Below, one piece after another: positions 10,990 through 50,288 of a stretch of DNA of 60,309 nucleotides (the first letter of the stretch is position 1; every line of letters begins with the position of its first letter). The DNA is from a virus: positions 1 to 60,309 of IMG/VR virus record IMGVR_UViG_3300048824_000144. One strand, 5' to 3'. The notes below the pieces were generated by a model, which made no database searches, was not told the DNA's origin, and worked only from the letters and a program-made list of their open reading frames with translations. Both the position numbers and the translations under genes were made by a program.

Positions 10990-11061
10990 TCGAGTCAGGC
11001 GGAGTCGAACCGCCTACCTCCTGATTATGAGTCAGGTGCTCTGCCAATGAGCTATGACAGT
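10990..11061 (-). tRNA. tRNA-Met(CAT)-like, defective acceptor stem (possible pseudogene)
   Basis: good D arm GCTC/GAGC, anticodon arm CCTGA-CTCATAA-TCAGG and T arm GGCGG-TTCGACT-CCGCC, but only 4 of 7 acceptor pairs; the 3' strand looks interrupted (TGAC-TCGA-CAG); no CCA. Confidence 0.4.
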
Positions 11062-11113
11062 AGGTCGCAGTCTGACATCGGCGCTTCCCGGCCCGCTACA
11101 AACTCCACCCTGA

Positions 11114-11144
11114 TCTGGCTGCTCTACCACTGAGCTACGCCGGC
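11114..11144 (-). other. tRNA 5' half fragment (acceptor GCCGGCG + D arm)
   Basis: GCCGGCGTAGCTCAGTGGTAGAGCAGCCAGA, then no matching anticodon/T arm. Confidence 0.6.
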
Positions 11145-11153
11145 ATTTGTTTT

Positions 11154-11187
11154 TGGGGCCGGCGGTGGGATTCGAACCCACGCGCAC
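11154..11187 (-). other. tRNA 3' fragment (T arm + acceptor CGCCGGC + C + CCA)
   Basis: GTGGGTTCGAATCCCAC CGCCGGC C CCA; its acceptor strand is the exact complement of the 5' half that lies 9 nt downstream. Confidence 0.6.
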
Positions 11188-17445: not shown

Positions 17446-17486
17446 CCCTTAAAAGGGCATTGCTCTACCAACTGAGCTACGCGCCC
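17446..17486 (-). other. tRNA-Lys(TTT) 5'-half-like segment, candidate attP core
   Basis: GGGCGCG TA GCTC AGTTGGTA GAGC A ATGCC CTTTTAA, then the tRNA fold is lost; 10 nt downstream of the integrase stop; flanked by arm repeats. Confidence 0.55.
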
Positions 17487-17495
17487 ACATTGCCT

Positions 17496-38435: not shown

Positions 38436-38577
38436 TTGTTGAGGATAAGCGGGCCCGCATGCGGTTTCAAACGCTCAGATCGGGCCGCCTGATCCACCGG
38501 CGCACGGCCATGCTATAGTCGGCGATCCCCTGTGGATCACAGTGGAAACGGTGGAAATCTAAAATATTGTTGGCGGC

Positions 38578-38979: not shown

Positions 38980-38997
38980 GACAGTCCCCTCAGAAAT

Positions 38998-39073
38998 TGG
39001 TAGGCCCAGAAGGATTCGAACCCTCAAAAGCTGCTCCTAAGGCAGCCGTGTTTGCCGATTACACCATGGGCCC
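38998..39073 (-). tRNA. tRNA-Leu(TAG) with only a 4-nt variable region (atypical)
   Basis: acceptor GGGCCCA/TGGGCCT, A73, CCA; anticodon arm GCTGC-CTTAGGA-GCAGC; T loop TTCGAAT; same acceptor as tRNA-Leu(CAA) at 39379. Confidence 0.65.
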
Positions 39074-39075
39074 AC

Positions 39076-39166
39076 TGGTGCACAGAGAAGGATTTGAACC
39101 TCCGCGTCCCACTCGGGGAAACCGGGTTACAGCCGGTCCGTTTCAGCCGGGCTCACGCATCTGTGC
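39076..39166 (-). tRNA. tRNA-Tyr(GTA)
   Basis: acceptor GCACAGA/TCTGTGC; ACCGG-CTGTAAC-CCGGT; long variable arm; GGAGG-TTCAAAT-CCTTC; CCA. Confidence 0.8.
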
Positions 39167-39170
39167 AAAA

Positions 39171-39260
39171 TGGCGGAGAAGGTGAGATTTGAACTCACGA
39201 CACCCGCAGGTGTGGCAGTTTTCGGGACTGCTGGCATAAGCCGGACTCGCCCACTTCTCC
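39171..39260 (-). tRNA. tRNA-Ser(CGA)
   Basis: GGAGAAG/CTTCTCC; GCAGT-CCCGAAA-ACTGC; long variable arm; T loop TTCAAAT; GCCA end. Confidence 0.75.
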
Positions 39261-39261
39261 G

Positions 39262-39349
39262 TGGCGGAGAGTGCGAGATTCGAACTCGCGGCGCCCTTGG
39301 GCGCTCGATCTTAGCAGGATCGCGGCATAAGCCACTCGCCCAACTCTCC
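39262..39349 (-). tRNA. tRNA-Ser(GCT)
   Basis: GGAGAGT/ACTCTCC; CGATC-CTGCTAA-GATCG; long variable arm; GCGAG-TTCGAAT-CTCGC; CCA. Confidence 0.8.
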
Positions 39350-39378
39350 GTTTGAATTGTCAAAGATCAAAGAAACTT

Positions 39379-39462
39379 TGGTAGGCCCAGAGAGATTTGA
39401 ACTCTCATGCCCGAAGGCGACCGCTCTTGAGGCGGCTGCGTCTGCCGTTCCGCCATGGGCCT
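39379..39462 (-). tRNA. tRNA-Leu(CAA)
   Basis: AGGCCCA/TGGGCCT; GCCGC-CTCAAGA-GCGGT; 13-nt variable arm; GAGAG-TTCAAAT-CTCTC; ACCA. Confidence 0.8.
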
Positions 39463-39545
39463 GAATTGTGTGGGGACTAATAACCCAGCAGGATGCTGAG
39501 TCGTAACGACAATCGGGATGAGTGTAGAGCGAACATCGAAGTTTT

Positions 39546-39622
39546 TGGTTGCGCGGGGTGGATTTGCACGCACCGTCTGGAGGTTATGAGCCTCCCGTAT
39601 TGTCCTACGCTACTACCGCGCC
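39546..39622 (-). tRNA. tRNA-Met(CAT), initiator-like 3' end, irregular D and T arms
   Basis: GGAGG-CTCATAA-CCTCC; ends ...CCGCGCAACCA as bacterial initiators do; the T stem pairs only as GGTG/CACC. Confidence 0.55.
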
Positions 39623-39627
39623 TCTCA

Positions 39628-39656
39628 AACCTAGCGGAAGCGCCCCGCGGTGTCAA
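39628..39656 (-). promoter_or_regulatory. candidate internal promoter TTGACA-N17-TAGGTT
   Basis: -35 at 39651-39656, -10 at 39628-39633; the predicted start coincides with the 5' end of tRNA-Met at 39622. Confidence 0.4.
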
Positions 39657-39741
39657 TCGCAAAAGCGGTCACGGGAGTGCGTGGCCCGAAGATCGCTCAT
39701 TTTCCGGTCAATCCGCAGGCGATTAGCGCATCGTCAAAAAA

Positions 39742-39824
39742 TGGTCGGGGTGAGAGGACTCGAACCTCTGGTGTTTGTGTACCTGCTCCCAAGGCAGGTG
39801 GCCTCGCCGCTAGCCGACACCCCG
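39742..39824 (-). tRNA. tRNA-Pro(TGG) with 12-nt variable region
   Basis: CGGGGTG/CACCCCG; CCTGC-CTTGGGA-GCAGG; AGAGG-TTCGAGT-CCTCT; ACCA. Confidence 0.65.
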
Positions 39825-39825
39825 A

Positions 39826-39901
39826 TGGTGAGAAGCCTCCGAGTCGAACGGAATCCTCTGGCTTTTCAGGCCAGCGCGCGCACCGGCTACGCCAGCTTCC
39901 C
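39826..39901 (-). tRNA. tRNA-Phe(GAA)
   Basis: GGGAAGC/GCTTCTC (one G-U); CTGGC-CTGAAAA-GCCAG; T loop TTCGACT; ACCA. Confidence 0.8.
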
Positions 39902-39968
39902 ACATTTTGGAGCCGGGTTACATCACGCGCGTTTCCCGGCAAGCTAGCGCGATAGCCCTTGCAAGATC

Positions 39969-40043
39969 TGGTGGACAAGGCGGCACTCGAAGCCGCGCCT
40001 GACGGGTGCAAACCGTCTATGCTCCCACTTACACCACTCGCCC
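39969..40043 (-). tRNA. tRNA-Ala(TGC)
   Basis: GGGCGAG/CTTGTCC with G3:U70; GACGG-TTTGCAC-CCGTC; GCGGC-TTCGAGT-GCCGC; ACCA. Confidence 0.8.
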
Positions 40044-40046
40044 ACT

Positions 40047-40121
40047 TGGGGTGACCCGAGGGAGTCGAACCCTCTAAAACGTGTTCCACAGACACGCCCC
40101 GCACCGTTTGGGTTGGGCCAC
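40047..40121 (-). tRNA. tRNA-His(GTG)
   Basis: GTGGCCC/GGGTCAC; CGTGT-CTGTGGA-ACACG; discriminator C; CCA; the base at -1 is A, not G. Confidence 0.7.
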
Positions 40122-40135
40122 TCAAAAACTAAACT

Positions 40136-40211
40136 TGGAGCCGGCGGCGTGGAGTTGAACCCGCAACCTGTCGAGTACAGATCGACCGCTCTGCCTTTGA
40201 GCTACACCGGC
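40136..40211 (-). tRNA. tRNA-Thr(TGT)
   Basis: GCCGGTG/CGCCGGC; GTCGA-TCTGTAC-TCGAC; T stem with a bulged A; TCCA end. Confidence 0.7.
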
Positions 40212-40224
40212 ACTTCTAAAAAAC

Positions 40225-40300
40225 TGGAGCCAGCGATCAGATTCGAACTGACTGCCTCTCCCTTACCAAGGGAGCGCACATCCTCATGTGCTTCACCGGC
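40225..40300 (-). tRNA. tRNA-Thr(GGT)
   Basis: GCCGGTG/CGCTGGC (two G-U); CTCCC-TTGGTAA-GGGAG; GTCAG-TTCGAAT-CTGAT. Confidence 0.8.
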
Positions 40301-40305
40301 AAACA

Positions 40306-40380
40306 TGGAGCCAGCGCGACGGATCGAACGCCGATCACCAGGGTACGAATCTGGCGCTCTGCCTGTTGAGCTACGCTGGC
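40306..40380 (-). tRNA. tRNA-Thr(CGT)
   Basis: GCCAGCG/CGCTGGC; CCAGA-TTCGTAC-CCTGG (one mismatch); CGGCG-TTCGATC-CGTCG. Confidence 0.7.
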
Positions 40381-40381
40381 C

Positions 40382-40455
40382 TGGAGGTCGGTGAGGGAGT
40401 TGAACCCCCGTCAGATGCTTTGCAGGCATCTACCTGGCCGCTCGGACAACCGACC
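40382..40455 (-). tRNA. tRNA-Cys(GCA)
   Basis: GGTCGGT/ACCGACC; GATGC-CTGCAAA-GCATC; GGGGG-TTCAACT-CCCTC. Confidence 0.8.
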
Positions 40456-40461
40456 GAAACC

Positions 40462-40536
40462 TGGTGCGGGGAACGGGACTCGAACCCGTGTCATCGCGTT
40501 GGCAACGCAATATCCTGGCCGCTAGACGATCCCAGC
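40462..40536 (-). tRNA. tRNA-Gly(GCC)
   Basis: GCTGGGA/TCCCCGC (one mismatch); TTGCG-TTGCCAA-CGCGA; ACGGG-TTCGAGT-CCCGT. Confidence 0.75.
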
Positions 40537-40544
40537 ACAAAATT

Positions 40545-40619
40545 TGGAGCGGACGGCGAGAGTTGAACTCGCGTCATTGGGTTGGAGGCCCAAGGCACCA
40601 GCCGCTATACCACGCCCGC
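40545..40619 (-). tRNA. tRNA-Gly(TCC)
   Basis: GCGGGCG/CGTCCGC; TTGGG-CCTCCAA-CCCAA; GCGAG-TTCAACT-CTCGC. Confidence 0.75.
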
Positions 40620-40734
40620 TCGCGCGCTCGCTTTGTAGGCGTCCTCGACGCCTCGTTCCCCGTCGCAGATCGGGAGACTGCTTTCCTGCTCCGGGCTTTC
40701 CCCGGTCGGCCCTGCGACTCCAGCGAACGCAAAA

Positions 40735-40811
40735 TGGCAGGCCGCGTGAGATTCGAACTCACTAGAACTAGTTTTGGAGACTAGCGCCCTTCCAGTCGGG
40801 TCATGCGGCCT
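40735..40811 (-). tRNA. tRNA-Trp(CCA)
   Basis: AGGCCGC/GCGGCCT; CTAGT-CTCCAAA-ACTAG; GTGAG-TTCGAAT-CTCAC; GCCA. Confidence 0.85.
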
Positions 40812-40812
40812 A

Positions 40813-40890
40813 TGGCGGGAATGACGAGACTCGAACTCGCTTTACTCCTCAGTGACAGTGAGGCGGCTCGGCCACTTTGCCCTCATCCCC
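40813..40890 (-). tRNA. tRNA-Asp(GTC)
   Basis: GGGGATG/CATTCCC; CCTCA-CTGTCAC-TGAGG; GCGAG-TTCGAGT-CTCGT; GCCA. Confidence 0.8.
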
Positions 40891-40911
40891 GTAAATCAAT
40901 TGTCAAAGAAC

Positions 40912-40986
40912 TGGCAACGGCTCAGAGATTCGAACTCTGCTCTCGGCGTCCAGAGCGCCGGGTCTTTCCCACTAAACGAAGCCGCA
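40912..40986 (-). tRNA. tRNA-Gln(CTG)
   Basis: TGCGGCT/AGCCGTT with unpaired 1:72; CGGCG-CTCTGGA-CGCCG; CAGAG-TTCGAAT-CTCTG; GCCA. Confidence 0.75.
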
Positions 40987-40993
40987 ACAAAAT

Positions 40994-41068
40994 TGGCAGC
41001 CGGTGAGAGAATTGAACTCCCGTAGCTGGATCCAAAGGCCAGCGCCTAAGCCACTCGGCCAACCGGCC
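40994..41068 (-). tRNA. tRNA-Gln(TTG)
   Basis: GGCCGGT/ACCGGCT; CTGGC-CTTTGGA-TCCAG (one mismatch); GGGAG-TTCAATT-CTCTC; GCCA. Confidence 0.7.
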
Positions 41069-41248
41069 TCAAATTTTCAAACTCACCGCCTTCACGCAGC
41101 GGCCGCACAGCACGAACTTGTCATCCGGCAGCATGCCGCGGGTCAGGTAATCGACCCTCGCATCCGAGATCAGCTTGCGATGATCCCCGCCACGCTCGCA
41201 TTCGAGAGCGTCGGTCAGCTTCACGGTTTCCCCGAATGCCTGCAACAT
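41069..41248 (-). CDS. possible 59-aa protein embedded in the tRNA array
   Basis: MLQAFGETVKLTDALECERGGDHRKLISDARVDYLTRGMLPDDKFVLCGRCVKAVSLKI; AGAGAGG upstream; its stop abuts the tRNA-Gln 5' end. Confidence 0.4.
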   Translation of the reverse strand: MLQAFGETVKLTDALECERGGDHRKLISDARVDYLTRGMLPDDKFVLCGRCVKAVSLKI

Positions 41249-41261
41249 CTCCGACCTCTCT

Positions 41262-41335
41262 TGGTAGGGCCACGGAGAATCGAACTCCGGTTCTCTGATC
41301 GAAAGTCAGTTTTCCTGCCACTAGAAGATGACCCC
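41262..41335 (-). tRNA. tRNA-Glu(TTC)
   Basis: GGGGTCA/TGGCCCT (G-U pairs); ACTGA-CTTTCGA-TCAGA; CGGAG-TTCGATT-CTCCG; ACCA. Confidence 0.75.
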
Positions 41336-41341
41336 ACAAAC

Positions 41342-41415
41342 TGGTAGCGCATCCGAGAATCGAACTCGGGTTCCCTGTTAGAGAGACAGGCTGCCTGCCA
41401 CTAGCAGAATGCGCC
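41342..41415 (-). tRNA. tRNA-Glu(CTC)
   Basis: GGCGCAT/ATGCGCT; CCTGT-CTCTCTA-ACAGG; CCGAG-TTCGATT-CTCGG; ACCA. Confidence 0.75.
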
Positions 41416-41417
41416 GC

Positions 41418-41448
41418 AAAAAACTTAAGCCCCTCGTTGGAGGGGCTT
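41418..41448 (-). terminator. rho-independent terminator
   Basis: the minus strand reads AAGCCCCTC-CAAC-GAGGGGCTT followed by AAGTTTTTT. Confidence 0.65.
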
Positions 41449-41566
41449 CGATGGCGTTGGTGCTCTCGAAATCCCCTCACATAAACGTGCCTTCCCCCTG
41501 CCACGCGGCTGGCGTAGTGGGTGTCGGCTGGTGGCCGAAGCAATCGCTATGTTGGAAGAGATTCAC
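41418..41566 (-). ncRNA. candidate ~150-nt small RNA inside the tRNA array
   Basis: bounded by promoter TTGACG-N17-TACTCT (41573-41601) and the terminator at 41418-41448; no plausible ORF. Confidence 0.35.
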
Positions 41567-41572
41567 AGATCG

Positions 41573-41601
41573 AGAGTACCGTCCCGCAGGCAGCGCGTCA
41601 A
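41573..41601 (-). promoter_or_regulatory. candidate sigma-70-type promoter TTGACG-N17-TACTCT
   Basis: -35 at 41596-41601, -10 at 41573-41578, spacing counted as 17. Confidence 0.45.
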
Positions 41602-41741
41602 GAACGAAAGGCCATGATCGAAAAGCAACATGTAAACATGTAAACATGCTCACACGGTTGCGAATGATCCTTCGCCAAAGAACGGCTCAGGATTTCGCGT
41701 CCGGGCTCCCGCTTCGCTCACGCCCGGAGAACCGCTCAAAA

Positions 41742-41817
41742 TGGCAGGCAGCCAGAGAATCGAACTCTGATCCCGGCTTTCGGAAAACCGTGTGCTCATC
41801 CGTTGCACCAGCCGCCC
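41742..41817 (-). tRNA. tRNA-Arg(CCG)
   Basis: GGGCGGC/GCTGCCT (G-U pairs); CGGTT-TTCCGAA-AGCCG; CAGAG-TTCGATT-CTCTG; GCCA. Confidence 0.8.
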
Positions 41818-41820
41818 GCA

Positions 41821-41896
41821 TGGTGCCCGCGCTGAGATTCGAACTCAGGTCTGTCGCTTAGGAGGCGACCGCTCTCTCCAGTTGAACTACGCGGGC
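41821..41896 (-). tRNA. tRNA-Arg(CCT)
   Basis: GCCCGCG/CGCGGGC; GTCGC-CTCCTAA-GCGAC; CTGAG-TTCGAAT-CTCAG; ACCA. Confidence 0.85.
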
Positions 41897-41909
41897 TGCA
41901 AACAAAAAA

Positions 41910-41985
41910 TGGCAGGAGCGGCAGGAATCGAACCCGCATTCCACGGTCCGTAGCCGTGTGCCCTGATCCGTTGGACGACGCTCCC
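41910..41985 (-). tRNA. tRNA-Arg(ACG)
   Basis: GGGAGCG/CGCTCCT; CACGG-CTACGGA-CCGTG; GCGGG-TTCGATT-CCTGC; GCCA. Confidence 0.8.
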
Positions 41986-41989
41986 ACTT

Positions 41990-42064
41990 TGGTAGAGCCT
42001 GGATGACTCGAACACCCATTTCAGGCTTAGAAGGCCTGATCCTATCCCGTTGAATGAAGGCTCC
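41990..42064 (-). tRNA. tRNA-Arg(TCT)
   Basis: GGAGCCT/AGGCTCT; CAGGC-CTTCTAA-GCCTG; GGGTG-TTCGAGT-CATCC; ACCA. Confidence 0.8.
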
Positions 42065-42069
42065 CAACC

Positions 42070-42135
42070 TGGTGCGGGTGACAGGAATCGAACCTGCTGC
42101 CACTCGATTAAAAGTCGAGTGCTCTAATCCACCGC
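42070..42135 (-). tRNA. tRNA-Lys(TTT)-like, 5' D-arm region deleted (probable pseudogene)
   Basis: GCGGTGG-ATTAGAGC-ACTCGA-CTTTTAA-TCGAGT-GGCA-GCAGG-TTCGATT-CCTGT-CACCCGC-ACCA, 66 nt; restoring about 12 nt would give a canonical GCGGGTG/CACCCGC tRNA. Confidence 0.45.
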
Positions 42136-42286
42136 TGCTTCCGCGCCCTCACCGTGTCCGCCGATTCGCGTCCGCCCATCAGAAGAACGCTTCCTTCGAT
42201 TGATCGAAAACCGCAGACTCGACGGCCAGGTGCTTCATTCGAGAGAGCAGTGGCGGCAAGTTCGGATGCAACATCGCGTTTTCTCC

Positions 42287-42592
42287 TCAGTTCTGCGGAG
42301 CCCGCTGCGCTTCGTCGATCAGGGCGCGGCTGGCAAACTGGTCTGTCTGGCATTGCGCGAGTGCCGGCTTCGCCTCTTCCATGGTGCGAAAGCGGGTCAC
42401 GCTGTCTTCGTAGTACAGATCCCACGAGAGGCAAATGCCACACCACGGGTTGAGCACGCGTTGGTCGACGGCGTTCTTGAGCAAAGCCTGGAGCTGCCGC
42501 TGGGCTTCTTCACCGCTGGTTTCGGCATCGTCATAGGCCACTGCGATAACGCAGTGGCGATCGGGGCAAAGGCATTGCACAATGTGGATCAT
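42287..42592 (-). CDS. Cys-rich hypothetical protein
   Basis: 101 aa; CLCPDRHC...CGIC. Confidence 0.65.
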   Translation of the reverse strand: MIHIVQCLCPDRHCVIAVAYDDAETSGEEAQRQLQALLKNAVDQRVLNPWCGICLSWDLYYEDSVTRFRTMEEAKPALAQCQTDQFASRALIDEAQRAPQN

Positions 42593-43020
42593 GCTGCCGC
42601 CGTCGTTTTCTGTGCGCCCTTGCGTTGCACCGTGATGTAGCCGGCGCCGGCCATCTCCATGACCAGATCCTCATCGAGAGCGGGCAGCATGGTGCGCGGA
42701 GTGAGCAGATCGAAAACTCCCAGCAGCGAACCGAGGGCCATGTAGCGCAGAGCCACCCCTTGGTCGCCGAGCCACGCGCCCAGCTCAAGATAGCTATGCT
42801 CTTTGCCGTCCAGCGGATCGCACTCTTGCCAGTCGCCCGGATGCGCTTTGGTCAAGGCTTCGAACTCGGCCGCGCTGGGTTCGTCTTTCTTCGCCACCAA
42901 AAAGAAAACCATGTCGGCAGTGTGGCCGATTGGATCGGGCTTCGTGCCCACGTCGATGCAGCGGCCGCATTTGCATTCTCCGCGATCGGTGTGGGCGTCA
43001 ACGTATTCTCCTAGCTTCAT
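42589..43020 (-). CDS. hypothetical protein
   Basis: 143 aa from ATG 43020 (MKLGEYVDAHTDRGECKCGRC...); a GTG at 43029 is also possible. Confidence 0.65.
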   Translation of the reverse strand: MKLGEYVDAHTDRGECKCGRCIDVGTKPDPIGHTADMVFFLVAKKDEPSAAEFEALTKAHPGDWQECDPLDGKEHSYLELGAWLGDQGVALRYMALGSLLGVFDLLTPRTMLPALDEDLVMEMAGAGYITVQRKGAQKTTAAA

Positions 43021-43076
43021 GTTCGCCACCCCAAAATGATGGGACTTATATACTTAACTCCCTAAACACAATGAAA

Positions 43077-43517
43077 TCAGCCATCAACATCGGCCAACAG
43101 TTCCGGCGTAACTTTCGCTATGGCGTAGGCGTCGGTCAGGTCGCACACTCCGCCTTCGCAGTGCCATCGGTCATCAAGGCTCAAATAATTCAGCAGCCGA
43201 GCGGCTTCGGGTGTGGTCATCGTTACGGCACTCCAGCACCAATTACCGACCCATTCGTGCTTTCCGCTAAGAACCTCAAAGCGTCGGCGCGACAGACACA
43301 GGAAGTTACCACTGAACGAGTACCGAGGCTCCGATCCTCTCTCGCCCCACTGGAGATCAATCTCGTCTCCGATCTGCACAGCAGATACGCGTCCAGTGTC
43401 GATTCCGTGTTCGTCATTCGTCGCCAGACTAACTATTACGTTCACGTTTTGCCTTCTTTCGCTTTCGGGGTTTCTTGCGCTTCGACTTCGGACGGTAAGC
43501 CAGTACCACATCCGCAA
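43077..43517 (-). CDS. cargo protein of IS copy 2 (start uncertain)
   Basis: C-terminal 110 aa look coding (IDLQWGERGSEPRYSFSGNFLCL...WHCEGGVCDLTDAYAIAK); the N-terminus overlaps the small basic ORF. Confidence 0.45.
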   Translation of the reverse strand: MRMWYWLTVRSRSARNPESERRQNVNVIVSLATNDEHGIDTGRVSAVQIGDEIDLQWGERGSEPRYSFSGNFLCLSRRRFEVLSGKHEWVGNWCWSAVTMTTPEAARLLNYLSLDDRWHCEGGVCDLTDAYAIAKVTPELLADVDG

Positions 43518-43551
43518 TCGCGTCTAGGACGGGGGGAGTTTTGCGCTTCAT
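43429..43551 (-). CDS. small basic protein (homologue of 19969-20106)
   Basis: MKRKTPPVLDAIADVVLAYRPKSKRKKPRKRKKAKRERNS shares KTPP.LD.IAD.VL.YRPK with IS copy 1. Confidence 0.4.
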   Translation of the reverse strand: MKRKTPPVLDAIADVVLAYRPKSKRKKPRKRKKAKRERNS

Positions 43552-43645
43552 GAGATTCCCTTTTTACACTTCGCACAGACAGCGAGAATGTACAGTGTGG
43601 CTGTCCGCAACCGTCCACCACATATCCGGCAGAACGATGCCTTCT

Positions 43646-44563
43646 TCATGCGGTCAACCCTTCATAGGTCAGCCGCTTGCCGACTACGGCCAGAACAAAG
43701 CTATCCAGCCGCTCAAGAGTGTGGTACTTCACGTTGCCGACGTTCAGCCGGAAGGTGAACTCGTCAACGTACTTGGCAAGATGCTTCTTGCTTATTTGGT
43801 GATAGACGCCGTACACGCCGCGTTTCAGGACTGCCCAAACGCTCTCGATTCCGTTCGTGCTCGCCTGACCCAGCCGGTACTCGCCCGCCATGTGATTGAC
43901 GCTCTGGTGACGGAAGAAAAGACCATCAAGGCCGATGTATCCGGGTGCCTCATCCGTGAAGATCGTAGAGCCGACTTCCACATTGGCGTGGATGGCGGAT
44001 TGCAAACTGACTTGGTCGGTAGCTTCCAGCGGCATTGCAATAGTGCGTCCGCCGCGCTCCCTGAGTCCTACAACGGCAGTCTTGCCCACGGAGCCACGCC
44101 CAGCCTTGAGCTTTTTGTGCTCGTGCTTGTTGCGCTCTTTCCCGCCGATAAAACATTCGTCAATTTCGACCATGCCGCGAAGTTTGTCCAGCTTCCCGCC
44201 GCACGCCTCCCGAAGCCGATGCAGAACGAACCACGCCGACTTCTGCGTAATGCCGATTTCCTTGGCAAGCTGCATCGAACTGATGCCTTTTCGCGCTGTG
44301 ACGAGCAGGTACATGGCATAGAGCCACTTGTGCAGAGGAATGTGGCTGCGCTCGAAGATCGTGCCTGTACGGATGGTGAAATCCAATTGGCAGGCATTGC
44401 AGCGATAGAAGCCGCCCTTGCGAGTTGTGATGCGTTCAGTGGCTTTGCAGGTCGGGCAAGTGACGCCGTTTTCCCAGAGACGGGATTCCAGATAGAGCCG
44501 TGCGGACTCCGCGTCGGGAAACATCTCGAAAAGCTGGAATGTGCTGATCGTGCTCTTACTCAT
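43646..44563 (-). CDS. IS1595-family (ISXO2-like) DDE transposase
   Basis: 305 aa from ATG 44563 (MSKSTISTFQLFEMFP...), collinear and highly similar to 20103-21029. Confidence 0.9.
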   Translation of the reverse strand: MSKSTISTFQLFEMFPDAESARLYLESRLWENGVTCPTCKATERITTRKGGFYRCNACQLDFTIRTGTIFERSHIPLHKWLYAMYLLVTARKGISSMQLAKEIGITQKSAWFVLHRLREACGGKLDKLRGMVEIDECFIGGKERNKHEHKKLKAGRGSVGKTAVVGLRERGGRTIAMPLEATDQVSLQSAIHANVEVGSTIFTDEAPGYIGLDGLFFRHQSVNHMAGEYRLGQASTNGIESVWAVLKRGVYGVYHQISKKHLAKYVDEFTFRLNVGNVKYHTLERLDSFVLAVVGKRLTYEGLTA

Positions 44564-44567
44564 TGCG

Positions 44568-44738
44568 TTACCCCTCGCATCCCATCTGGTAATAGCCGCC
44601 ACAGTCCTGGGAGCAGAAATCTATCGTTTGCGTGCGAACCTCTTGCTTTTGGCGAGCGGGATTCCATGCTCGGTCGATTATCTTTCGCGGTACAGGTGTC
44701 TCGATTGGCTTCCCGCAGTAAGGGCATTTGGCTGTCAT
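44568..44738 (-). CDS. zinc-ribbon cargo protein
   Basis: 56 aa MTAKCPYCGKPIETP...CSQDCGGYYQMGCEG; stop 5 nt before the transposase ATG. Confidence 0.45.
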   Translation of the reverse strand: MTAKCPYCGKPIETPVPRKIIDRAWNPARQKQEVRTQTIDFCSQDCGGYYQMGCEG

Positions 44739-44795
44739 TTTGTCAAAACCTCCGTCAAAACTTTACAAAACGGCGTAAACATTCAAGAGCGGATT

Positions 44796-45062
44796 TCACA
44801 CTTCTGGTGGAATTGGCAATCGCCGGTGCTCAACTACGGCAAGTTCCCCAGCGTGGAGTCTGCCATAGCAAGAGCAATCCTTACTTGGCGGGTGGTTGCA
44901 GCATAGATAGCGCCCATCCGCCCCAATCCACGCCTGATGCGTGTAGTCGTAATGTTCCGACCTTAGTGTCCGCTCCGCCGCATCCGTGGTTAGCCTTGCG
45001 TATCGAATGGTGCTCACAGTTGACCTCCGATCAAGATAGGGTGTTTCACAAGTACTACGCAA
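44796..45062 (-). CDS. possible cargo protein
   Basis: 88 aa ORF in a low-G+C segment; overlaps the next ORF by 49 nt. Confidence 0.3.
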   Translation of the reverse strand: MRSTCETPYLDRRSTVSTIRYARLTTDAAERTLRSEHYDYTHQAWIGADGRYLCCNHPPSKDCSCYGRLHAGELAVVEHRRLPIPPEV

Positions 45063-45202
45063 AACATGCGCTCGAAAGCGTTGCGAGGAGCTAATGTTCG
45101 CTTATTCAGGTAAGAGATCACGTTCGCGAGCTTCAGTGACCCCACATAATTGCCTTCTGCCTCGCACTCTCTCAGCAACTCTAAACAAATACTGTAGGCC
45201 AT
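45014..45202 (-). CDS. possible cargo protein
   Basis: 62 aa; MAYSICLELLRECEAEGNYVGSLKLANVISYLNK looks coding. Confidence 0.35.
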   Translation of the reverse strand: MAYSICLELLRECEAEGNYVGSLKLANVISYLNKRTLAPRNAFERMFCVVLVKHPILIGGQL

Positions 45203-45221
45203 TTGTAAGGGAACTATATAC

Positions 45222-45933
45222 TTAACTCCCTAACTGCCGAGTTTCAACATTGCACACAGCTTCCGCATAATCGACAATACAGCTCGCCAGCTCAGGAGGA
45301 ATGGTTGCCGCTACGCCACTACAGTTAGCGCGACCGCCGGCCAATCTCTCGCTCTCTTGCTGCCACCGATTACGCCAGTCCTGCACACTGATGTCCTGCG
45401 GACGCTTCTCCATCCATGCGCCAGGAGCTCCACGAAAGCCCTTGCCTTTAATAATCCCTTGCGGCATGAGCGGCGGTACTCCGCTGCCCCACAGGTAGAA
45501 CGGGCCGCAATGATGGACTGCATTGCCCACAAACTGCTGCGCCGCTCTGACGTTCTCCATGACGAAGGGAATGCCGGATGCCATGCACAATTCACGGGTG
45601 TGATTGAAGAGCCTAATACCTTGCGTTGGGTAAGGGGGGCTTGGGTGAAAGCACTTCATGCCGTGTACAGAAAACTCTTCACAGGGAGAGGAGGCACAGA
45701 TGAAATCGAACTGTTCCGACCAGTGGCAAGCAAACCGATCTTGGAGCATTACATAACCGTTTCCCGATGCTGCAAAATTAAGCACGTCCTCTTTCAGGAA
45801 GTACAATCCCTGCGGAACCTCTGGGGGGTTCAACTAAGTCAACCGCAACGACATTCCAGCCTCGCGACAAAAATGGTTTCGACCATCCGAGTCGCCCGCA
45901 AAAGAGATCAAGCATCCGTTTCATGTTTGGCAT
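45222..45933 (-). pseudogene. C5 cytosine DNA methyltransferase split by a frameshift at a C6 run
   Basis: motif I DLFCGRLGWS in frame A (45933-45778); motif IV SSPCEEFS and motif VI FVMENV in frame B (45833-45222); frames meet at GGGGGG 45823-45828. Confidence 0.7.
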
Positions 45934-45959
45934 CCTAGCACCCCAGAAAAGGGAGTTAA

Positions 45960-46100
45960 CTATATAATTCCCAAAATGATGATCACAACGACAACCAGTT
46001 CGCAGACCGCGCCCGGGCGCGGATGGTTGGAGACGATCAGCACGCAGCCGGCTAGCGCCAAAAGCGCGACCAGCTTTTCCTGAGTGATGGTGATGGTCAT
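45960..46100 (-). CDS. small membrane protein whose last codons were replaced by the IS insertion
   Basis: MTITITQEKLVALLALAGCVLIV...; GGAGG RBS; removing the IS restores ...ILGWRT-TGA overlapping the ATG at 43020. Confidence 0.45.
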   Translation of the reverse strand: MTITITQEKLVALLALAGCVLIVSNHPRPGAVCELVVVVIIILGII

Positions 46101-46417
46101 GCGTGGCCTCCGCATTTCGCGATGGGCGAACCGGCCACCGCGCGCCGCAAGCTTTCGAGGCGCTTCCATTCTTCCACCGCGGCATCGGCCGCCTGGCGCA
46201 GCGTCATGCCTTCGGGATCTCCGGCAGTTGAGCCGGGGACGAAGCAGGAGCATCGGCCCTGTAGGTGTGCGATCGAGCCGATGATTCCGCGCAGCCCGCA
46301 GTTGCGGTGCATCCACACGAGCCCGGCGTTAAAGGGCATGCGCTCCTCGCCCTCGAGGATTGCTTCGGTGCAGCGGGCGCAGATGACGGCCGGTGTGGGC
46401 CTAGCTTCATCGTTCAT
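46097..46417 (-). CDS. Cys-rich hypothetical protein
   Basis: 106 aa; CARC...C...CSC. Confidence 0.65.
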   Translation of the reverse strand: MNDEARPTPAVICARCTEAILEGEERMPFNAGLVWMHRNCGLRGIIGSIAHLQGRCSCFVPGSTAGDPEGMTLRQAADAAVEEWKRLESLRRAVAGSPIAKCGGHA

Positions 46418-46623
46418 GCTTTTGCACCCGATTGGCGCTGCTTTTTCCGCGTCTTTCCAGCATCGCTTAGGTCTGTCAGTTTGACCTCGAAGCTCAGCGC
46501 GATATGCGCGGTCACTTCCACGCCCAGGCCGGAGGACCTCAACGCGGCGGAAAGCTTGCCGATCTTATCCACCACGCGCTGCAGTTCGTACGCCGAAAGG
46601 TTAGGGTCGTCTTTATCCGCCAT
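46414..46623 (-). CDS. hypothetical protein
   Basis: 69 aa from ATG 46623 (MADKDDPNLSAYELQRVVDKIGK...). Confidence 0.55.
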   Translation of the reverse strand: MADKDDPNLSAYELQRVVDKIGKLSAALRSSGLGVEVTAHIALSFEVKLTDLSDAGKTRKKQRQSGAKA

Positions 46624-46918
46624 CGGTTTCCTTTCCGGTTTCGGGATCCACCATGCGATCGCAGAATTCGCGCGACCGCCGGATGCTTTCTTCGTTGACG
46701 GTAAGCCCGTTGCGCTTCGCGATGGTGCGGATAGCCTCTTCCAGCACATCCATCACGTCGGGCCGCGGACCGGCGCGGTTCAGCGGACTCGCTTCGCCCA
46801 CAGCCAGCAGCAACTCGTGCCCGGTGGGGCAAAGCTGGAAGGGATGGCCTTCGCACTGCTGGCAGACGTCCAGGTGAGCGTGGAAATTATCGGCGGCGAT
46901 TTCTAAAGGAGTTTTCAC
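46613..46918 (-). CDS. hypothetical protein
   Basis: 101 aa from GTG 46918 (GTGA overlap); CQQCEGHPFQLC. Confidence 0.6.
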   Translation of the reverse strand: MKTPLEIAADNFHAHLDVCQQCEGHPFQLCPTGHELLLAVGEASPLNRAGPRPDVMDVLEEAIRTIAKRNGLTVNEESIRRSREFCDRMVDPETGKETDGG

Positions 46919-47331
46919 GCGGCCGTTTTCTCCTCCATCGTCTCCGCGAACAGCTTGCGGGCGTCGGCGCGGATGCTGGCGGCGCGGCACTCGGCGACTC
47001 CATCGTTCACGACGTTGCCCTCGCAGGTGATGCGAATGACGTGCTCTCCGTTGATTTCCGCTTCCGCCGTCAGTTCCCCTTCCGGGGTGGTGATCGAGCC
47101 GCGCCCTGACGCGACCGCGCACAGCGGGCAGGCACCGGAGGCCATGTGCTCCATGGCGTTGATCAGCATGGGCGCGCGCTCATCATGGTACTTCTTGAGC
47201 TTCTCGCGCAGGGCGGTAACTTCCGCGAGTACGCGGCGCGTCTTGCGGCCCGCGAGGTAGTTTGTGGTCACCACCGCGATCAGGAAGGCGTCGATCCCGT
47301 AGCGAAACATAGTGAACATTGTGTGCATCAT
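46915..47331 (-). CDS. membrane-anchored hypothetical protein
   Basis: 138 aa from ATG 47331; N-terminal TM FRYGIDAFLIAVVTTNYL. Confidence 0.6.
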   Translation of the reverse strand: MMHTMFTMFRYGIDAFLIAVVTTNYLAGRKTRRVLAEVTALREKLKKYHDERAPMLINAMEHMASGACPLCAVASGRGSITTPEGELTAEAEINGEHVIRITCEGNVVNDGVAECRAASIRADARKLFAETMEEKTAA

Positions 47332-47885
47332 GCAATCGGCTCCAGCTCTCCCTCGCGGTTGCGGTGAAGAGCGTCCAGCGTGGCCGCTTCCTCTGTGGCT
47401 TCGGTCAGGTCGAAGCAGAAGCGGCCAGTGTCCAGTTCCACATCGGGCGCCGCCGCGTTGAATACGCGCCGGTCCAGTCCGTCGCGAGTGTAACCGTAGG
47501 AGAGCCCATAGCCCTTCATCCCAATGGCGTTTACGTTGACCAGCAGGGCCTCGTGGGTGAGCGCCTTCGGCCATTCCCAAAGATTGCGGGGCATGTCGGC
47601 AAACGTCTTGCCGGGCGGCGGCGAAGCAAACAGCGCGTCGGAAAAGAACACGATCACGCGCGCGTGCGCCTGAAACAAAATCTTCACGATGATGCTGCCG
47701 ATGATGTTCTTGCTCTTCCAGTGCGCCATCATCTCGGGATGGAGCGGAGTGGAAAAGGGGCGCTCGATGCCGGTCTCCGGCGGGAAGGCCATCGGGCGCG
47801 GCGCAATCGGCCCCGGATTGGCCAGCATTTCGCTCCGCACTATTTCCACCGCGTAGTCCACTTCCGTCTTGTAGAGCTGGGTCAT
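47328..47885 (-). CDS. hypothetical protein
   Basis: 185 aa, balanced composition. Confidence 0.65.
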   Translation of the reverse strand: MTQLYKTEVDYAVEIVRSEMLANPGPIAPRPMAFPPETGIERPFSTPLHPEMMAHWKSKNIIGSIIVKILFQAHARVIVFFSDALFASPPPGKTFADMPRNLWEWPKALTHEALLVNVNAIGMKGYGLSYGYTRDGLDRRVFNAAAPDVELDTGRFCFDLTEATEEAATLDALHRNREGELEPIA

Positions 47886-48127
47886 GCAGCTATCTCCACC
47901 AGGCGCTCAACCTTCACCACGCCATCTTCGATCTTGCGGCCGTAAAGATGAGCCGCACAGTAATACCACCAGCGGAAACCCGTCCCGTGCTTTCTGCGAA
48001 GCGCGGCGACCGCCGGATCGTGGCATCCCTTTTGCCGGCACGTCCGGTCGAGATCGGCCACCTTCCAGCCTTCATCGGCAACCCACTCTCGGCGATAGCC
48101 CGCTGGAACATCGTCGGCCTCCGTCAT
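47882..48127 (-). CDS. hypothetical protein
   Basis: 81 aa. Confidence 0.65.
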   Translation of the reverse strand: MTEADDVPAGYRREWVADEGWKVADLDRTCRQKGCHDPAVAALRRKHGTGFRWWYYCAAHLYGRKIEDGVVKVERLVEIAA

Positions 48128-48456
48128 CGCGGCTCGCTTTCAAGCGTCATCGTTACGCCGCAGTGTTTCGGCCAGCCGCCGGCGAGATACCCAGCGAACT
48201 CCTGCTTCGAGATTTCCCGTACATGATCGCATTCGTGGCAGCGCAGCGAGTAACGCTTTTCCCGGTAAAGGTCAGACGCGATCCGCTTATTCGCGCCGAT
48301 CACTTCGAGAAATCCGCCGAGTGCCCCGAAGGTGGGGTCGATGCCGTTGAGCGTGAGGTTGGTGGAACCGAGGTCGATGCGCCGCCAGCGCCCCTGCGCG
48401 AGGGCCAGTGAGCTGAGGGCCAGAACGAAGACGAGCAGGAACCAATTCCGCTTCAT
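48124..48456 (-). CDS. secreted hypothetical protein
   Basis: signal-peptide-like MKRNWFLLVFVLALSSLALAQG. Confidence 0.65.
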   Translation of the reverse strand: MKRNWFLLVFVLALSSLALAQGRWRRIDLGSTNLTLNGIDPTFGALGGFLEVIGANKRIASDLYREKRYSLRCHECDHVREISKQEFAGYLAGGWPKHCGVTMTLESEPR

Positions 48457-48468
48457 AGTTCTCTCCTT

Positions 48469-48621
48469 TTAACTTTTCCTCCATCGCGGCCGCAGCTCCT
48501 CAACTTCGCGCTGCCACAGGCCGAGAGCCGGCGATCCCGGAAAGAGCTGGCATCCCCGGCCGAAAACCAGTCCCGCCCAAACGTAGCGCGGCCACGCGAT
48601 GATGTACCTGAGCAGTCTCAT
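48469..48621 (-). CDS. possible 50-aa hydrophobic protein
   Basis: ATG 48621 overlaps the RtcB stop (ATGA). Confidence 0.4.
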   Translation of the reverse strand: MRLLRYIIAWPRYVWAGLVFGRGCQLFPGSPALGLWQREVEELRPRWRKS

Positions 48622-49892
48622 GCCGGCGCGCTCTCGACTTTCTTCCGGCCTATTTTTTCGTCGCCGCCCTTGACGCACACGAACTGCTTGAGCCGGTACA
48701 CCGGTTCCACCAGGTCGGACTGCGCCGCCATCACCGCTTCAATGTCTTTGTAGGCGCCCGGAGTCTCATCGAGCACGCTGGCATCTTTCAGGCACTCGAC
48801 GCCTTCCGTCGCCTTGATGTGATCGGCCAGGCTGAATTGCCGCACCGCTTCTTTGCGCCCCATGGCGCGCCCGGCGCCGTGCGAACAGGTCTGGAAAGAA
48901 TCCGTGTTCCCGAGGCCGCGCACGATGTAGGTCCGCGCGCCCATGCTGCCGGGGATGATGCCCAGATCTCCCAGCCGCGCCCGAACCGCTCCCTTGCGCG
49001 TGACCAGAACGTTTTCGCCGAAGTGACTTTCCCACACGACGTAATTGTGATGACAGTGGACGCGGAACTCTTCGCCGACGGCCCCCAGCAACGGAGAAAG
49101 GGCGGCTACGATATTTTCCATCATGATCTCGCGGTTGCGCCAGGCGAAGCGCTGCGCGAATGAGACGGCGTGCAGGTAGTCGTCGAATGCCGCCTCGCCC
49201 CGCGGTAGAAAGGCCAGGTCGGGATCGGGCAACTCGATAAACCAGCGCTTGCACAAGTCTTTTGCGACGTCGGTAAAATAGCCGCCAATCTTGTTGCCCA
49301 GCCCGCGCGAGCCGGAGTGCAGCACGATCCACACGCGCTCTTGCTCGTCGGCGCAGATTTCGATGAAGTGATTTCCCGTGCCCAGCGTCCCGAGTTGCGA
49401 GAGCGTGTTCTTGGCCTGTGCTCCCGGATGCTTCGCAATGATGCTTCCGTACTCGGCGGAGAATTCTGAGTTCCAGGCTTCGGCGATCGCCGCCGGAGCC
49501 ACGCTCTCCGGAGTTCGCGCCCAGCCGCCAACGTCTCCCACGGCGCCGTTATTCGTACGGCCGTGAGGGACCGCCTTCTCGATCGCCGCGCGCACTTCGG
49601 CCAGATCTGCAATTTGTTCGCGCCGGAATTGCGTGCGAACCGCCATCATTCCGCAGCCGATATCCACGCCCACCGCCGCCGGCACAACCGCATTGCGCGT
49701 GGGCAGCACCGTGCCCACGGTCGATCCCATGCCCCAATGAGTGTCGGGCATGGCCGCCATCCACTTGTAGATGAAGGGCAGCCGCGCCGTGTTCTTGAGC
49801 TGGTCGATGGCCTTGTCCTCGAAGCGCACGCCTTTGCGCCACGCTTTGATGATGCGGCCTTCGCCGGCGTCGATGATCTCGAAATTGCTCAT
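48618..49892 (-). CDS. rtcB: RtcB RNA ligase (3'-phosphate/5'-hydroxyl)
   Basis: 424 aa from ATG 49892; GVDIGCGM, GTLGTGNHFIE, HSGSRGLGN, HCHHNY, GSMGA, SCHGAGR motifs. Confidence 0.9.
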   Translation of the reverse strand: MSNFEIIDAGEGRIIKAWRKGVRFEDKAIDQLKNTARLPFIYKWMAAMPDTHWGMGSTVGTVLPTRNAVVPAAVGVDIGCGMMAVRTQFRREQIADLAEVRAAIEKAVPHGRTNNGAVGDVGGWARTPESVAPAAIAEAWNSEFSAEYGSIIAKHPGAQAKNTLSQLGTLGTGNHFIEICADEQERVWIVLHSGSRGLGNKIGGYFTDVAKDLCKRWFIELPDPDLAFLPRGEAAFDDYLHAVSFAQRFAWRNREIMMENIVAALSPLLGAVGEEFRVHCHHNYVVWESHFGENVLVTRKGAVRARLGDLGIIPGSMGARTYIVRGLGNTDSFQTCSHGAGRAMGRKEAVRQFSLADHIKATEGVECLKDASVLDETPGAYKDIEAVMAAQSDLVEPVYRLKQFVCVKGGDEKIGRKKVESAPA

Positions 49893-50266
49893 GCCTGATT
49901 CGCCTGCCACGGGTACTGCTGAAAATCTTCGCCGAGCAGCTCCGCCGCGGCCTCGCACAGCGCCACGCCCGCAAGCTGATTGGTTTCCGGATACCAGGTG
50001 CCGTCCCGGCCCCATTCCAGATAGGTGATGCCGGCGAGCCGGCGATAACTCCATCCGTCGTCACAGCGCAGTTGCCGGACGCGCTCCGCTCGCTCCCGCG
50101 TCATGCGCGGTTTGATCTCCGCGTAGAACTCGGCGTGCCTCGTGCCGGCAGCTTCGGCCAACTCCAAAAGTTCATCGACGCCCACGGCGTGGCCGCCGTC
50201 GCGGAACAGCGCATCGCGCTCCGCCGAGGAGATCTTCGAGTCGCCCATGTACAGCATGTTTTTCAT
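49889..50266 (-). CDS. hypothetical protein
   Basis: 125 aa; coupled to rtcB. Confidence 0.65.
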   Translation of the reverse strand: MKNMLYMGDSKISSAERDALFRDGGHAVGVDELLELAEAAGTRHAEFYAEIKPRMTRERAERVRQLRCDDGWSYRRLAGITYLEWGRDGTWYPETNQLAGVALCEAAAELLGEDFQQYPWQANQA

Positions 50267-50288
50267 GCCGCGGTCTCCGCGCCCGGCT

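Follow-up and report, generated by a model that had tools for sequence, protein, structure and literature searches.

Positions 1 to 60,309 of the IMG/VR virus record IMGVR_UViG_3300048824_000144 (hereafter the window, 60,309 nt) carry a long array of 27 transfer RNA (tRNA) genes and, on the same minus strand, a gene for RtcB, the RNA ligase that joins 3'-phosphate or 2',3'-cyclic-phosphate ends to 5'-OH ends. The best explanation overall, to which we give a probability of about 0.6, is that the two would provide a spare, sequence-diverged tRNA pool together with a ligase, sustaining translation when tRNAs are cleaved or depleted. The array is an additional copy of an already described kind, the L-array or tRNA array unit, rather than a new system, and it reveals no new mechanism. 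Judged from sequence, it appears to be an old, syntenic, horizontally mobile cassette common to the phages and chromosomes of Acidobacteriota, and its carrier here is predicted to be a temperate, tailed phage-like element of an uncultured soil Acidobacteriaceae bacterium.

A long tRNA array and a full-length RtcB

With default settings ARAGORN called 24 tRNA genes between positions 38998 and 42064, each of them on the minus strand. Rfam, run with the tRNA gathering score (29) as cut-off, returned these 24 plus a Lys(TTT)-like gene, giving 25. A His(GTG) gene and a CAT-anticodon tRNA-like gene, the latter scoring slightly under the gathering score, were recovered with relaxed ARAGORN settings and an Rfam E-value threshold (coordinates and scores are in Table 1). 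The predictors thus accept most of the array, and the total agrees with the 27 genes within 3.1 kb that a first-pass annotation of this DNA had reported; all have a single orientation, at a density of 7.6-8.6 tRNA genes per kb (24 high-confidence genes, or 27 in all). Read 5' to 3', the array consists of the Lys(TTT) remnant, Arg (TCT, ACG, CCT, CCG), Glu (CTC, TTC), an open reading frame (ORF) of 59 aa, Gln (TTG, CTG), Asp, Trp, Gly (TCC, GCC), Cys, Thr (CGT, GGT, TGT), His, Ala, Phe, Pro(TGG), the CAT tRNA, Leu(CAA), Ser (GCT, CGA), Tyr and Leu(TAG). The grouping by amino acid described at first pass (Arg x4, Glu x2, Gln x2, Gly x2, Thr x3, Ser x2, Leu x2) is therefore right except that the two Leu genes stand apart, and we likewise found no Ile, Val, Asn or intact Lys tRNA in the array with either ARAGORN or Rfam.

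About 24 of the array tRNA genes look intact, and identity marks such as the G3.U70 pair of tRNA-Ala and the encoded CCA have been kept. The CCA end, which had been claimed for all of the genes, is encoded by 26 of the 27, and the CAT gene can be added to these only if its positions 1:72 are read as a G.A mismatch. The G-U pairs and mismatches noted earlier in the acceptor stems are also there, amounting to 19 G.U pairs (G1.U72 in seven tRNAs) and 2 mismatches in the 25 tRNAs scored. Are such genes maintained as tRNAs? When the stem pairs of nine orthologous tRNAs were compared with those of the related locus L003, 130 pairs were unchanged, 39 had compensatory changes, 13 had a one-sided change but were still paired and only 1 was broken; against the more distant L261 the counts were 112 compensatory and 45 broken, and other distant relatives gave a similar pattern. 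Because compensatory changes far exceed disruptive ones, the array genes are under selection for tRNA structure, and the array as a whole looks functional.

The ligase gene likewise looks functional, and its product is full length. Its match to PF01139 (E = 3e-120) spans profile positions 1-426 of 426, and it also matches PHROG 1075 (E = 1.4e-134). In an alignment to the RtcB of P. horikoshii (4dwr/1uc2) the motifs DIGCG, GNHF, HSGSRG, HHN and SHGAGR are all conserved, and the window protein keeps the residues aligned with Asp95, Cys98, Asn202, His203, His234, His329 and His404 of that enzyme, which we take to be its metal ligands and guanylylated His. All of the aligned catalytic residues, including the metal-binding Cys and His, are thus present. 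The closest relatives of this RtcB are 85-88% identical to it, and one of them (85%) lies in a bacterial chromosomal context.

The first-pass annotation placed RtcB ~6.5 kb upstream of the array, with no opposing gene between the two apart from an insertion sequence (IS). The distance is correct as measured, but 2.9 kb of it is contributed by an IS1595-family element that was recently inserted; it is bounded by terminal inverted repeats, GGGACTTATATA.../...TATATAATTCCC, and by an 8-bp target duplication, AAAATGAT, at 43033-43040 and 45973-45980. It encodes a minus-strand transposase at 43646-44602 (DDE_Tnp_IS1595, Pfam 1.5e-41, with an N-terminal zinc ribbon, 8e-08) and contains a methylase-like fragment (45222-45833). 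As L001, an otherwise 100% identical contig, lacks the IS, the native distance between RtcB and the array is 3.5 kb, not 6.5. The remark on gene direction stands for all predicted genes of the interval, which are on the minus strand; the IS transposase is on that strand too and so is not an opposing gene either. A second patch of low guanine-plus-cytosine (GC) content (54%), at 19900-22100, contains another minus-strand IS1595-family transposase gene (20103-21029) that is ~76% identical in DNA to the IS beside the array, and L259 also holds a related IS.

Besides tRNA genes the array holds a spacer and the 59-aa ORF. The spacer, which precedes Glu(CTC), contains a promoter-like sequence, TTGACG-N17-TACTCT, and a structured RNA of ~110 nt with the invariant motif CAGCCGCGTGGCAGGGGGAAGG; a terminator hairpin and T-run at 41427-41448 end 11 nt short of tRNA-Glu(CTC). 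It is conserved in L003, L259 and L261, and the hairpin is kept in four lineages with 2 compensatory pairs. None of the Rfam families matched the spacer RNA, and the element could be a small RNA or an attenuator. The 59-aa ORF has invariant residues at Cys17, His23, Cys48 and Cys51, and homologues occupy the same array slot in L090, L131, L136, L142, L259, L260 and L261; the L003 copy is pseudogenised. Its AlphaFold2 model has a predicted local distance difference test (pLDDT) score of 70 and no match in the PDB, and family searches, including NCBIfam, gave no assignment.

Related loci and the history of the array

A near-identity DNA search of phage and plasmid collections with 38000-50500 returned nothing useful, and exact-pattern scans of IMG/VR with a conserved tRNA-Arg segment and with the spacer RNA gave no matches. 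A metagenome scan with RtcB, in which identity was at most 61% among the matches listed (so that the 85-88% relatives were not among them), brought out chromosomal arrays. L003 encodes an RtcB that is 88% identical to that of the window and has, ~1 kb downstream of it, a syntenic array whose DNA is 75-85% identical. Seven other loci (L003, L259, L261, L142, L136, L131 and L090) share with the window, in whole or in part, the order Asn-Met-(Ile)-Val-Ile-Lys-Lys-Arg x3-4-Glu x1-2-[59-aa ORF]-Gln-Gln-Asp-Trp-Gly-Gly-Cys-Thr-Thr-Thr-His-Ala-Phe-Pro, which in some continues Leu(CAA)-Ser-Ser-Tyr-Leu(TAG). Three of these carriers are phage-like, namely L003, L259 (114 kb) and L261 (56.7 kb), and L260 (105.7 kb) has a rearranged version of the array without Val. 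The other four (L142, L136, L131 and L090) look chromosomal, with oxidoreductases, a TonB-type outer-membrane protein and an epoxide hydrolase in their flanks; in this type RtcB (57-59% identical) is enclosed by the array, with Ala, Phe or Pro on one side, according to the locus, and an additional Pro(TGG) on the other.

RtcB is inside or adjoining the array in L003, L090, L095, L117, L131, L136, L142 and Tunturiibacter phage Tunturi 5, so that its association with arrays, found in many independent loci, is no coincidence of this one window; the isotype order itself recurs in at least 10 independent loci. More generally, 32 of the 82 RtcB loci examined have tRNAs in the flank (12 of the 82 have five or more), and among 80 IMG/VR loci that encode RtcB relatives ~30 have tRNAs no more than 10 kb away, often with tRNA-Pro(TGG) abutting RtcB. 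Genes of the Ro60 and Y RNA kind also occur: L142 has a TROVE/vWA (Ro60) gene 4 kb beyond its RtcB-containing array, and in L133, whose array is a different one of 31 genes, RtcB has a true YrlA Y RNA (82 bits) as its immediate upstream neighbour. Two side observations concern related loci. A Fic-domain protein is encoded upstream of the same-order array in L259 (7295-8305, within ~1 kb) and L260 (3474-4688, ~2-3 kb), and CTA-anticodon tRNAs of amber-suppressor type, labelled "Pyl" by ARAGORN, occur in L260 (~7869) and in the IMG/VR RtcB locus L021 (~3737); the window has neither.

Why, then, are Ile, Val, Asn and intact Lys tRNAs missing from the window? Together with a normal Met they make up the head of the array (Asn, Met, Val, Ile, Lys) in seven relatives, five of which include Val; it is present in L003, L259, L261 and L142, and in L260 without Val. 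The window array starts at the decayed Lys(TTT), which indicates that this lineage lost the head en bloc. The missing tRNAs therefore reflect a lineage-specific deletion and not a design feature. The Lys(TTT) remnant, which the first pass rightly regarded as damaged, has two acceptor and two D-stem mismatches when folded by hand. We considered whether it might be a 5'-truncated gene left at the deletion junction and rejected this because it is homologous over its full length to an intact orthologue, the Lys(TTT) of L142, and so has decayed. The tRNA-His is probably impaired as well, with an A at position -1 where eight relatives have a G that pairs with C73.

Other members of the array are peculiar rather than damaged. 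The CAT tRNA is 85-87% identical to copies in L136, L117 and L125, where the neighbouring tRNAs are ~65-75% identical, and such identity across three distant loci leads us to call it odd rather than dead; its place in the relatives is directly after RtcB and Pro(TGG). The short form of Leu(TAG) (76-77 nt) is also found in L136, L117, L099 and L122, and the long form in L133, L094 and L260. The tRNA-Pro(TGG) at 39742-39824 (minus strand) is 83 nt long, with a variable loop of ~12-13 nt. The tRNA-Tyr(GTA) (39076-39166, minus strand) is 98% identical to the chromosomal-type copy of L136, the neighbouring tRNAs being 60-76% identical, which suggests that phage and chromosomal arrays have recently exchanged this gene or undergone gene conversion.

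Could the array be selfish or decaying cargo, a mobile cassette that hitch-hikes on the element without a current function for it? The deleted head, the degenerating Lys and His genes, the nearby IS and the pseudogenised 59-aa ORF of L003 speak for such an explanation. However, compensatory substitutions greatly outnumber disruptive ones across ~22 genes, and gene order has been conserved across RtcB divergence down to ~57% identity, and we regard cargo of this type as the least probable of the explanations considered here.

With regard to known systems, L-arrays spread horizontally and add supernumerary tRNAs, and rtcB lies in the cyanobacterial L-array neighbourhood (Santamaria-Gomez et al. 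2021, PMC8421152), so that the linkage of rtcB to L-arrays is already published for cyanobacteria. The window array resembles these L-arrays (Anabaena sp. PCC 7120 trn operon; PMC8421152, PMC10272220) in its >20 co-oriented supernumerary tRNA genes on a mobile replicon, in its few pseudogenes and embedded protein genes, in the recurrence of rtcB nearby, in its horizontal spread and in a gene order conserved among relatives, each within its own relatives. It differs from them in that the carrier is a temperate phage-like Acidobacteriaceae element and not a plasmid, and in that no HNH gene adjoins the array. Similarly, tRNA array units, defined by a minimum of 20 tRNA genes with no fewer than 2 per kb (Tran 2016, PMC4758250), have been described in Mycobacterium genomes, plasmids, cluster C/M mycobacteriophages and the integrative and conjugative elements of Acidithiobacillus (PMC4758250; Morgado & Vicente 2018, PMC5966550; Yano 2026, PMC12803027), where their tRNAs are redundant with the housekeeping tRNAs but different in sequence (PMC4758250, PMC5966550, PMC12803027). 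The window array has the size and density of such a unit and shares with the mycobacterial and Acidithiobacillus units isotype synteny across chromosomes and mobile elements and a suggested anti-defence role, whereas those units, which belong to different phyla, are typically accompanied by HNH endonucleases, Pth, RF-1 or tmRNA and not by RtcB, which is unmentioned in Tran 2016, Morgado & Vicente 2018 and Yano 2026 (PMC4758250, PMC5966550, PMC12803027).

There is a cultured parallel in Tunturi 5 (PP885688), a 309-kb jumbo phage of Acidobacteriaceae with 43 tRNAs and a "tRNA splicing ligase" (RtcB) (PMC11924767). It infects the same host family and has the segment Gln-Gln-Gly-Thr-Thr-Thr-Pro-His-Ala-Ala-Ala-Phe followed by one ORF and then RtcB, which parallels the order seen in the window and in the chromosomal loci. 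It is unlike the window element, which is temperate and ~60-118 kb, in its 309-kb length and its CCA-adding enzyme; its DNA is ~70% similar to the window over 183 nt only, and the window RtcB is not among its closest relatives. Across Acidobacteriota, then, a single array of fixed order is found in chromosomes, in temperate phages and in one cultured jumbo phage, in most cases linked to RtcB and in some to Ro60/Y RNA. The window element contributes a temperate phage as vehicle in this phylum, which is dominant in soil but has been little studied.

What the array may be for

The functions proposed for long tRNA arrays include translational-stress backup and anti-defence. In the explanation we prefer, a spare tRNA pool with its ligase, two or more transcription units would cover the array, and host enzymes would process the transcripts to ~24 chargeable tRNAs, enough to read roughly two in three codons of the element. 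Such a private pool, being unlike the housekeeping tRNAs, would keep translation going when the host pool had been cleaved or depleted, whether by the anticodon nucleases of defence systems or toxins or by phage-induced turnover, and RtcB would reseal tRNA halves with 2',3'-cyclic-phosphate and 5'-OH ends. Judged from sequence, the benefit could plausibly fall either to the lytically growing phage (counter-defence) or to a lysogen whose translation is under stress.

Phage T4 uses Pnk and Rnl1 to repair tRNA-Lys cleaved by PrrC. What we propose resembles the T4 and T5 systems in its logic, in that a phage tRNA pool and/or a ligase would restore translation after anticodon-nuclease attack. It is unlike both in that the Lys tRNA of the window, the classic target of PrrC and PARIS, is non-functional and no cognate nuclease is known, and unlike T4 in that ligation would use RtcB chemistry (3'-P/5'-OH) instead of Pnk plus an ATP-dependent Rnl. 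Published support for this logic includes the view of tRNA arrays as putative anti-defence systems (PMC12803027) and, as the work is cited in that paper, the finding that T5-type phages have tRNAs which escape or counteract defences directed at tRNAs (van den Berg 2023 eLife; Azam 2024 Nat Commun; cited in PMC12803027). Additionally, jumbo-phage tRNAs have been described as "supplemented" by RtcB, Rnl or ATP-grasp ligases, occasionally with TROVE proteins (Iyer et al., PMC7824862).

The first-pass annotation already spoke of sequence-diverged tRNAs, and this is borne out for Lys(UUU), the sole host housekeeping tRNA compared, where the array and host genes differ throughout the body. Several observations nevertheless weigh against a private pool of this kind. 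In that same tRNA the anticodon loop, CUUUUAA, is identical in the array copy (which is decayed) and the host, though the stem differs, so the single comparable case shows no loop-level evasion. PADLOC detected no tRNA nuclease or defence gene on the element. Five or six tRNAs were lost in one block and Lys and His have decayed, which shows that this lineage can do without much of the array and that the element does not need the complete set. The window contains no capsid, portal or terminase genes, a negative that covers the window itself, whereas contigs of 117-118 kb hold ~57 kb more (see below); the true genome is probably ~118 kb, and the window may be only half of it. Also, three related phage contigs have the array and no RtcB within 10 kb, making the coupling of the two frequent but not obligatory. 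The linkage of RtcB and array is real at the level of the family, but the single long operon envisaged at first pass is doubtful for the window because of the promoter-like site inside the array, the strong, conserved terminator also within it and the IS that parts it from RtcB; the last two make simple co-transcription doubtful.

Did the array arise instead as compensation for codon usage, supplying tRNAs for codons that are frequent in the phage and poorly decoded by the host? This is the classical explanation for phage tRNAs (Bailly-Bechet 2007, as cited in PMC11924767), and GC content at third codon positions is somewhat higher in the element than in the host family. However, comparison of the array anticodons with codon usage, a check proposed at first pass, did not support it. 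Relative codon usage is similar in the genes of the element and of the host family, and the array, which reads ~67% of the element's codons, includes tRNAs for codons that are rare in both (AGA, AGG, CTA, ACA and CAA), two facts that lead us to conclude that codon compensation was not the driver. Moreover, the array has nothing for Ile, Val, Asn, Lys and Met, which make up ~20% of the codons, and the same array occurs in genomes of differing GC content (53-62%). We consider the codon explanation very unlikely.

A different possibility is that array and RtcB form a stress module of lysogenic-conversion type that serves the host cell, normally silent and induced when translation is impaired; it would increase the supply of tRNAs, act as a sink for toxin RNases and mend cleaved tRNAs, as may be compared with the trn operon and rtcB regulon of Anabaena. 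There is published precedent (PMC8421152, PMC10272220), the Anabaena rtcB being co-induced with the array under translational stress (PMC8421152). The element is temperate, a same-order array with RtcB is found in apparently ordinary chromosomal contexts with Ro60/TROVE and YrlA nearby, and one chromosomal RtcB is as much as 85% identical to that of the window. That chromosomal copies have Ro60/Y RNA as neighbours speaks for a general context of RNA damage, and for the chromosomal module the "translational stress" role of L-arrays fits equally well (PMC8421152). On the other hand, the window array is part of a 26-kb stretch of small, co-oriented ORFs of phage type and is not an isolated moron with its own regulator, and no repressor gene or operator repeats were identified, although no systematic search was made for them. 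As this explanation overlaps mechanistically with the tRNA pool we prefer and differs only in the beneficiary, we hold it to be a genuine but doubtful alternative.

A more elaborate proposal would join array, RtcB, the Cys/His mini-protein and the spacer RNA, along with the Ro60/Y RNA of relatives, into an ancient mobile "tRNA-damage response cassette", moving back and forth between the chromosomes and the phages of Acidobacteriota. Its unusual tRNAs, namely the short Leu(UAG), the CAT tRNA with G55 and those with G1.U72, would be specialised decoys or sensors for tRNA-targeting toxins instead of ordinary decoders, and the spacer RNA would be a regulated attenuator that gates read-through into the distal 22 genes. 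We think this unlikely as it stands. Whichever explanation is correct, nature has provided variants (loss of the head, decay of Lys and His, the inserted IS, and the presence or absence of RtcB with an array) that could guide experiments with Tunturiibacter and Tunturi 5.

The carrier element and neighbouring features

The proteins encoded in the window include a tail fibre, a tail protein, a glucosaminidase, SNF2, DUF5131 and HNH proteins and two tyrosine recombinases. The first and last 127 bases of the window are identical (1-127 and 60183-60309), a signature of a circular contig. We have set aside the idea of a complete circular genome of 60.2 kb with an array unusually large for its size, since two independent contigs of 117-118 kb hold the same genes and ~57 kb more. 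One, a JGI contig of 117,946 bp, has the window genes at 99.97-100% identity and the other, a related ENA contig of 117,395 bp, has the same arrangement at 83-99% identity. Divergence of the JGI contig from the window sets in at 7815, the inner end of a 0.95-kb repeat (window 7815-8761, in the tail-protein gene) that this contig contains twice, and the window may thus be a sub-circle or a repeat-collapsed assembly.

Apart from the array, the only tRNA-like sequence that Rfam found in the window is a CAT body at 10994-11058, which lacks the top three acceptor pairs and CCA and is followed by a hairpin (composite RNA 10994-11210). It follows a Y RNA-like module in which a permuted tRNA domain (T-arm, loop-closed acceptor stem, D-arm) stands on a long stem (fold z = -2.75). 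The YrlA-like match, whose score is given in Table 1, compares with a gathering score of 69, and it is 37 kb from RtcB.

The rsr-yrlBA-rtcBA locus of Salmonella type is an RNA repair operon. The window resembles it in having RtcB and a Y RNA-like tRNA mimic, and YrlA in L133 and TROVE in L142 flank RtcB, but it is unlike that operon in lacking a TROVE, RtcA or RtcR gene; neither a TROVE (Ro60) gene nor YrlA adjoins the window rtcB, and no ORF in the window is of TROVE size. For the operon, regulation by RtcR has been described (PMC7790460), and YrlA is Rfam RF02553.

The neighbours of RtcB had been proposed as candidates for archease- or RtcA-like folds. They have no Pfam or NCBIfam matches, and the 125-aa ORF that overlaps the RtcB start is, with confidence on the strength of its AlphaFold2 model, an all-helical orphan fold of five helices and not archease or RtcA; the model has no match in the PDB or BFVD, and the ORF is confined to close relatives. 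Some of the small ORFs between RtcB and the IS are shared with the relative L005, and the two ORFs immediately upstream of the array had no match in Pfam, PHROGs, NCBIfam or PADLOC. In L003, the closest relative that has an array, the gene just upstream of RtcB (9158-9739) matches PF17720 (RLIG1, a 5'-3' RNA ligase family), so that two RNA ligases are adjacent there. A 193-aa ORF of the window (52617-53198) was considered as a counterpart of this protein and rejected, the two being unrelated despite their equal length. A 380-aa ORF after the array was similarly left without assignment, its one match being a weak one to a "radical SAM" PHROG, with none in Pfam, NCBIfam, PDB sequences or PADLOC.

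Table 1. Positions of the array, RtcB and other features in the window
Feature	Position	Strand	Evidence and remarks
Y RNA-like module and CAT tRNA-like body	10994..11182	-	Rfam YrlA 32 bits, tRNA 53.7 bits
Integrase and attP	17447..18863	-	Integrase 17496-18773/18863 by Pfam; 40-nt core 17447-17486
Long tRNA array, 27 genes	38998..42144	-	ARAGORN and Rfam; 3147 bp
tRNA-Leu(TAG), 76 nt, no long variable arm, G37	38998..39073	-	Rfam 62.1 bits
Non-canonical CAT-anticodon tRNA	39550..39621	-	Rfam 27.2 bits; T-loop TGCAAAT (G at 55), G1.A72
tRNA-His(GTG)	40047..40121	-	Relaxed ARAGORN only; A at -1, C73 retained
59-aa ORF between Glu(TTC) and Gln(TTG)	41069..41248	-	Coding score
Array-internal spacer, 326 nt, before Glu(CTC)	41416..41741	-	Terminator scan, conservation
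Decayed tRNA-Lys(TTT), 5' edge of array	42073..42144	-	Rfam 39.5 bits; not called Lys by ARAGORN
Two small ORFs (146 aa and 101 aa) immediately upstream of array	42287..43029	-	Coding score
IS1595-family insertion, 2932 bp, 54% GC	43041..45972	-	Pfam, terminal repeats, empty site
Six or seven small co-oriented ORFs, RtcB to IS	46097..48456	-	Coding score; no family matches
RtcB, 424 aa	48618..49892	-	Pfam, PHROG
125-aa ORF overlapping RtcB start (ATGA)	49889..50266	-	AlphaFold2 pLDDT 91.8
Second tyrosine recombinase, head of RtcB-containing gene block	53210..54589	-	Pfam, PHROG
Endonuclease VII gene, precedes second tyrosine recombinase	54586-55209		Annotation on L001

The element integrates into the tRNA-Lys(UUU) gene of its host. 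The 40-nt core of attP equals the 5' part of this host tRNA, up to the anticodon loop; in L177 (153.8 kb) the element is joined to bacterial DNA at the core, as at a prophage junction, and L179 and L180, which are metagenome-assembled genomes of Acidobacteriaceae, have the empty site with an intact tRNA-Lys and a flanking kinase that is 80-83% identical. As attP corresponds to the 5' 40 nt of the tRNA and not to the usual 3' part, the tRNA gene of the lysogen would be rebuilt with phage DNA upstream. The tRNA targeted by attP, Lys(UUU), is the same isoacceptor as the decayed copy in the element's own array.

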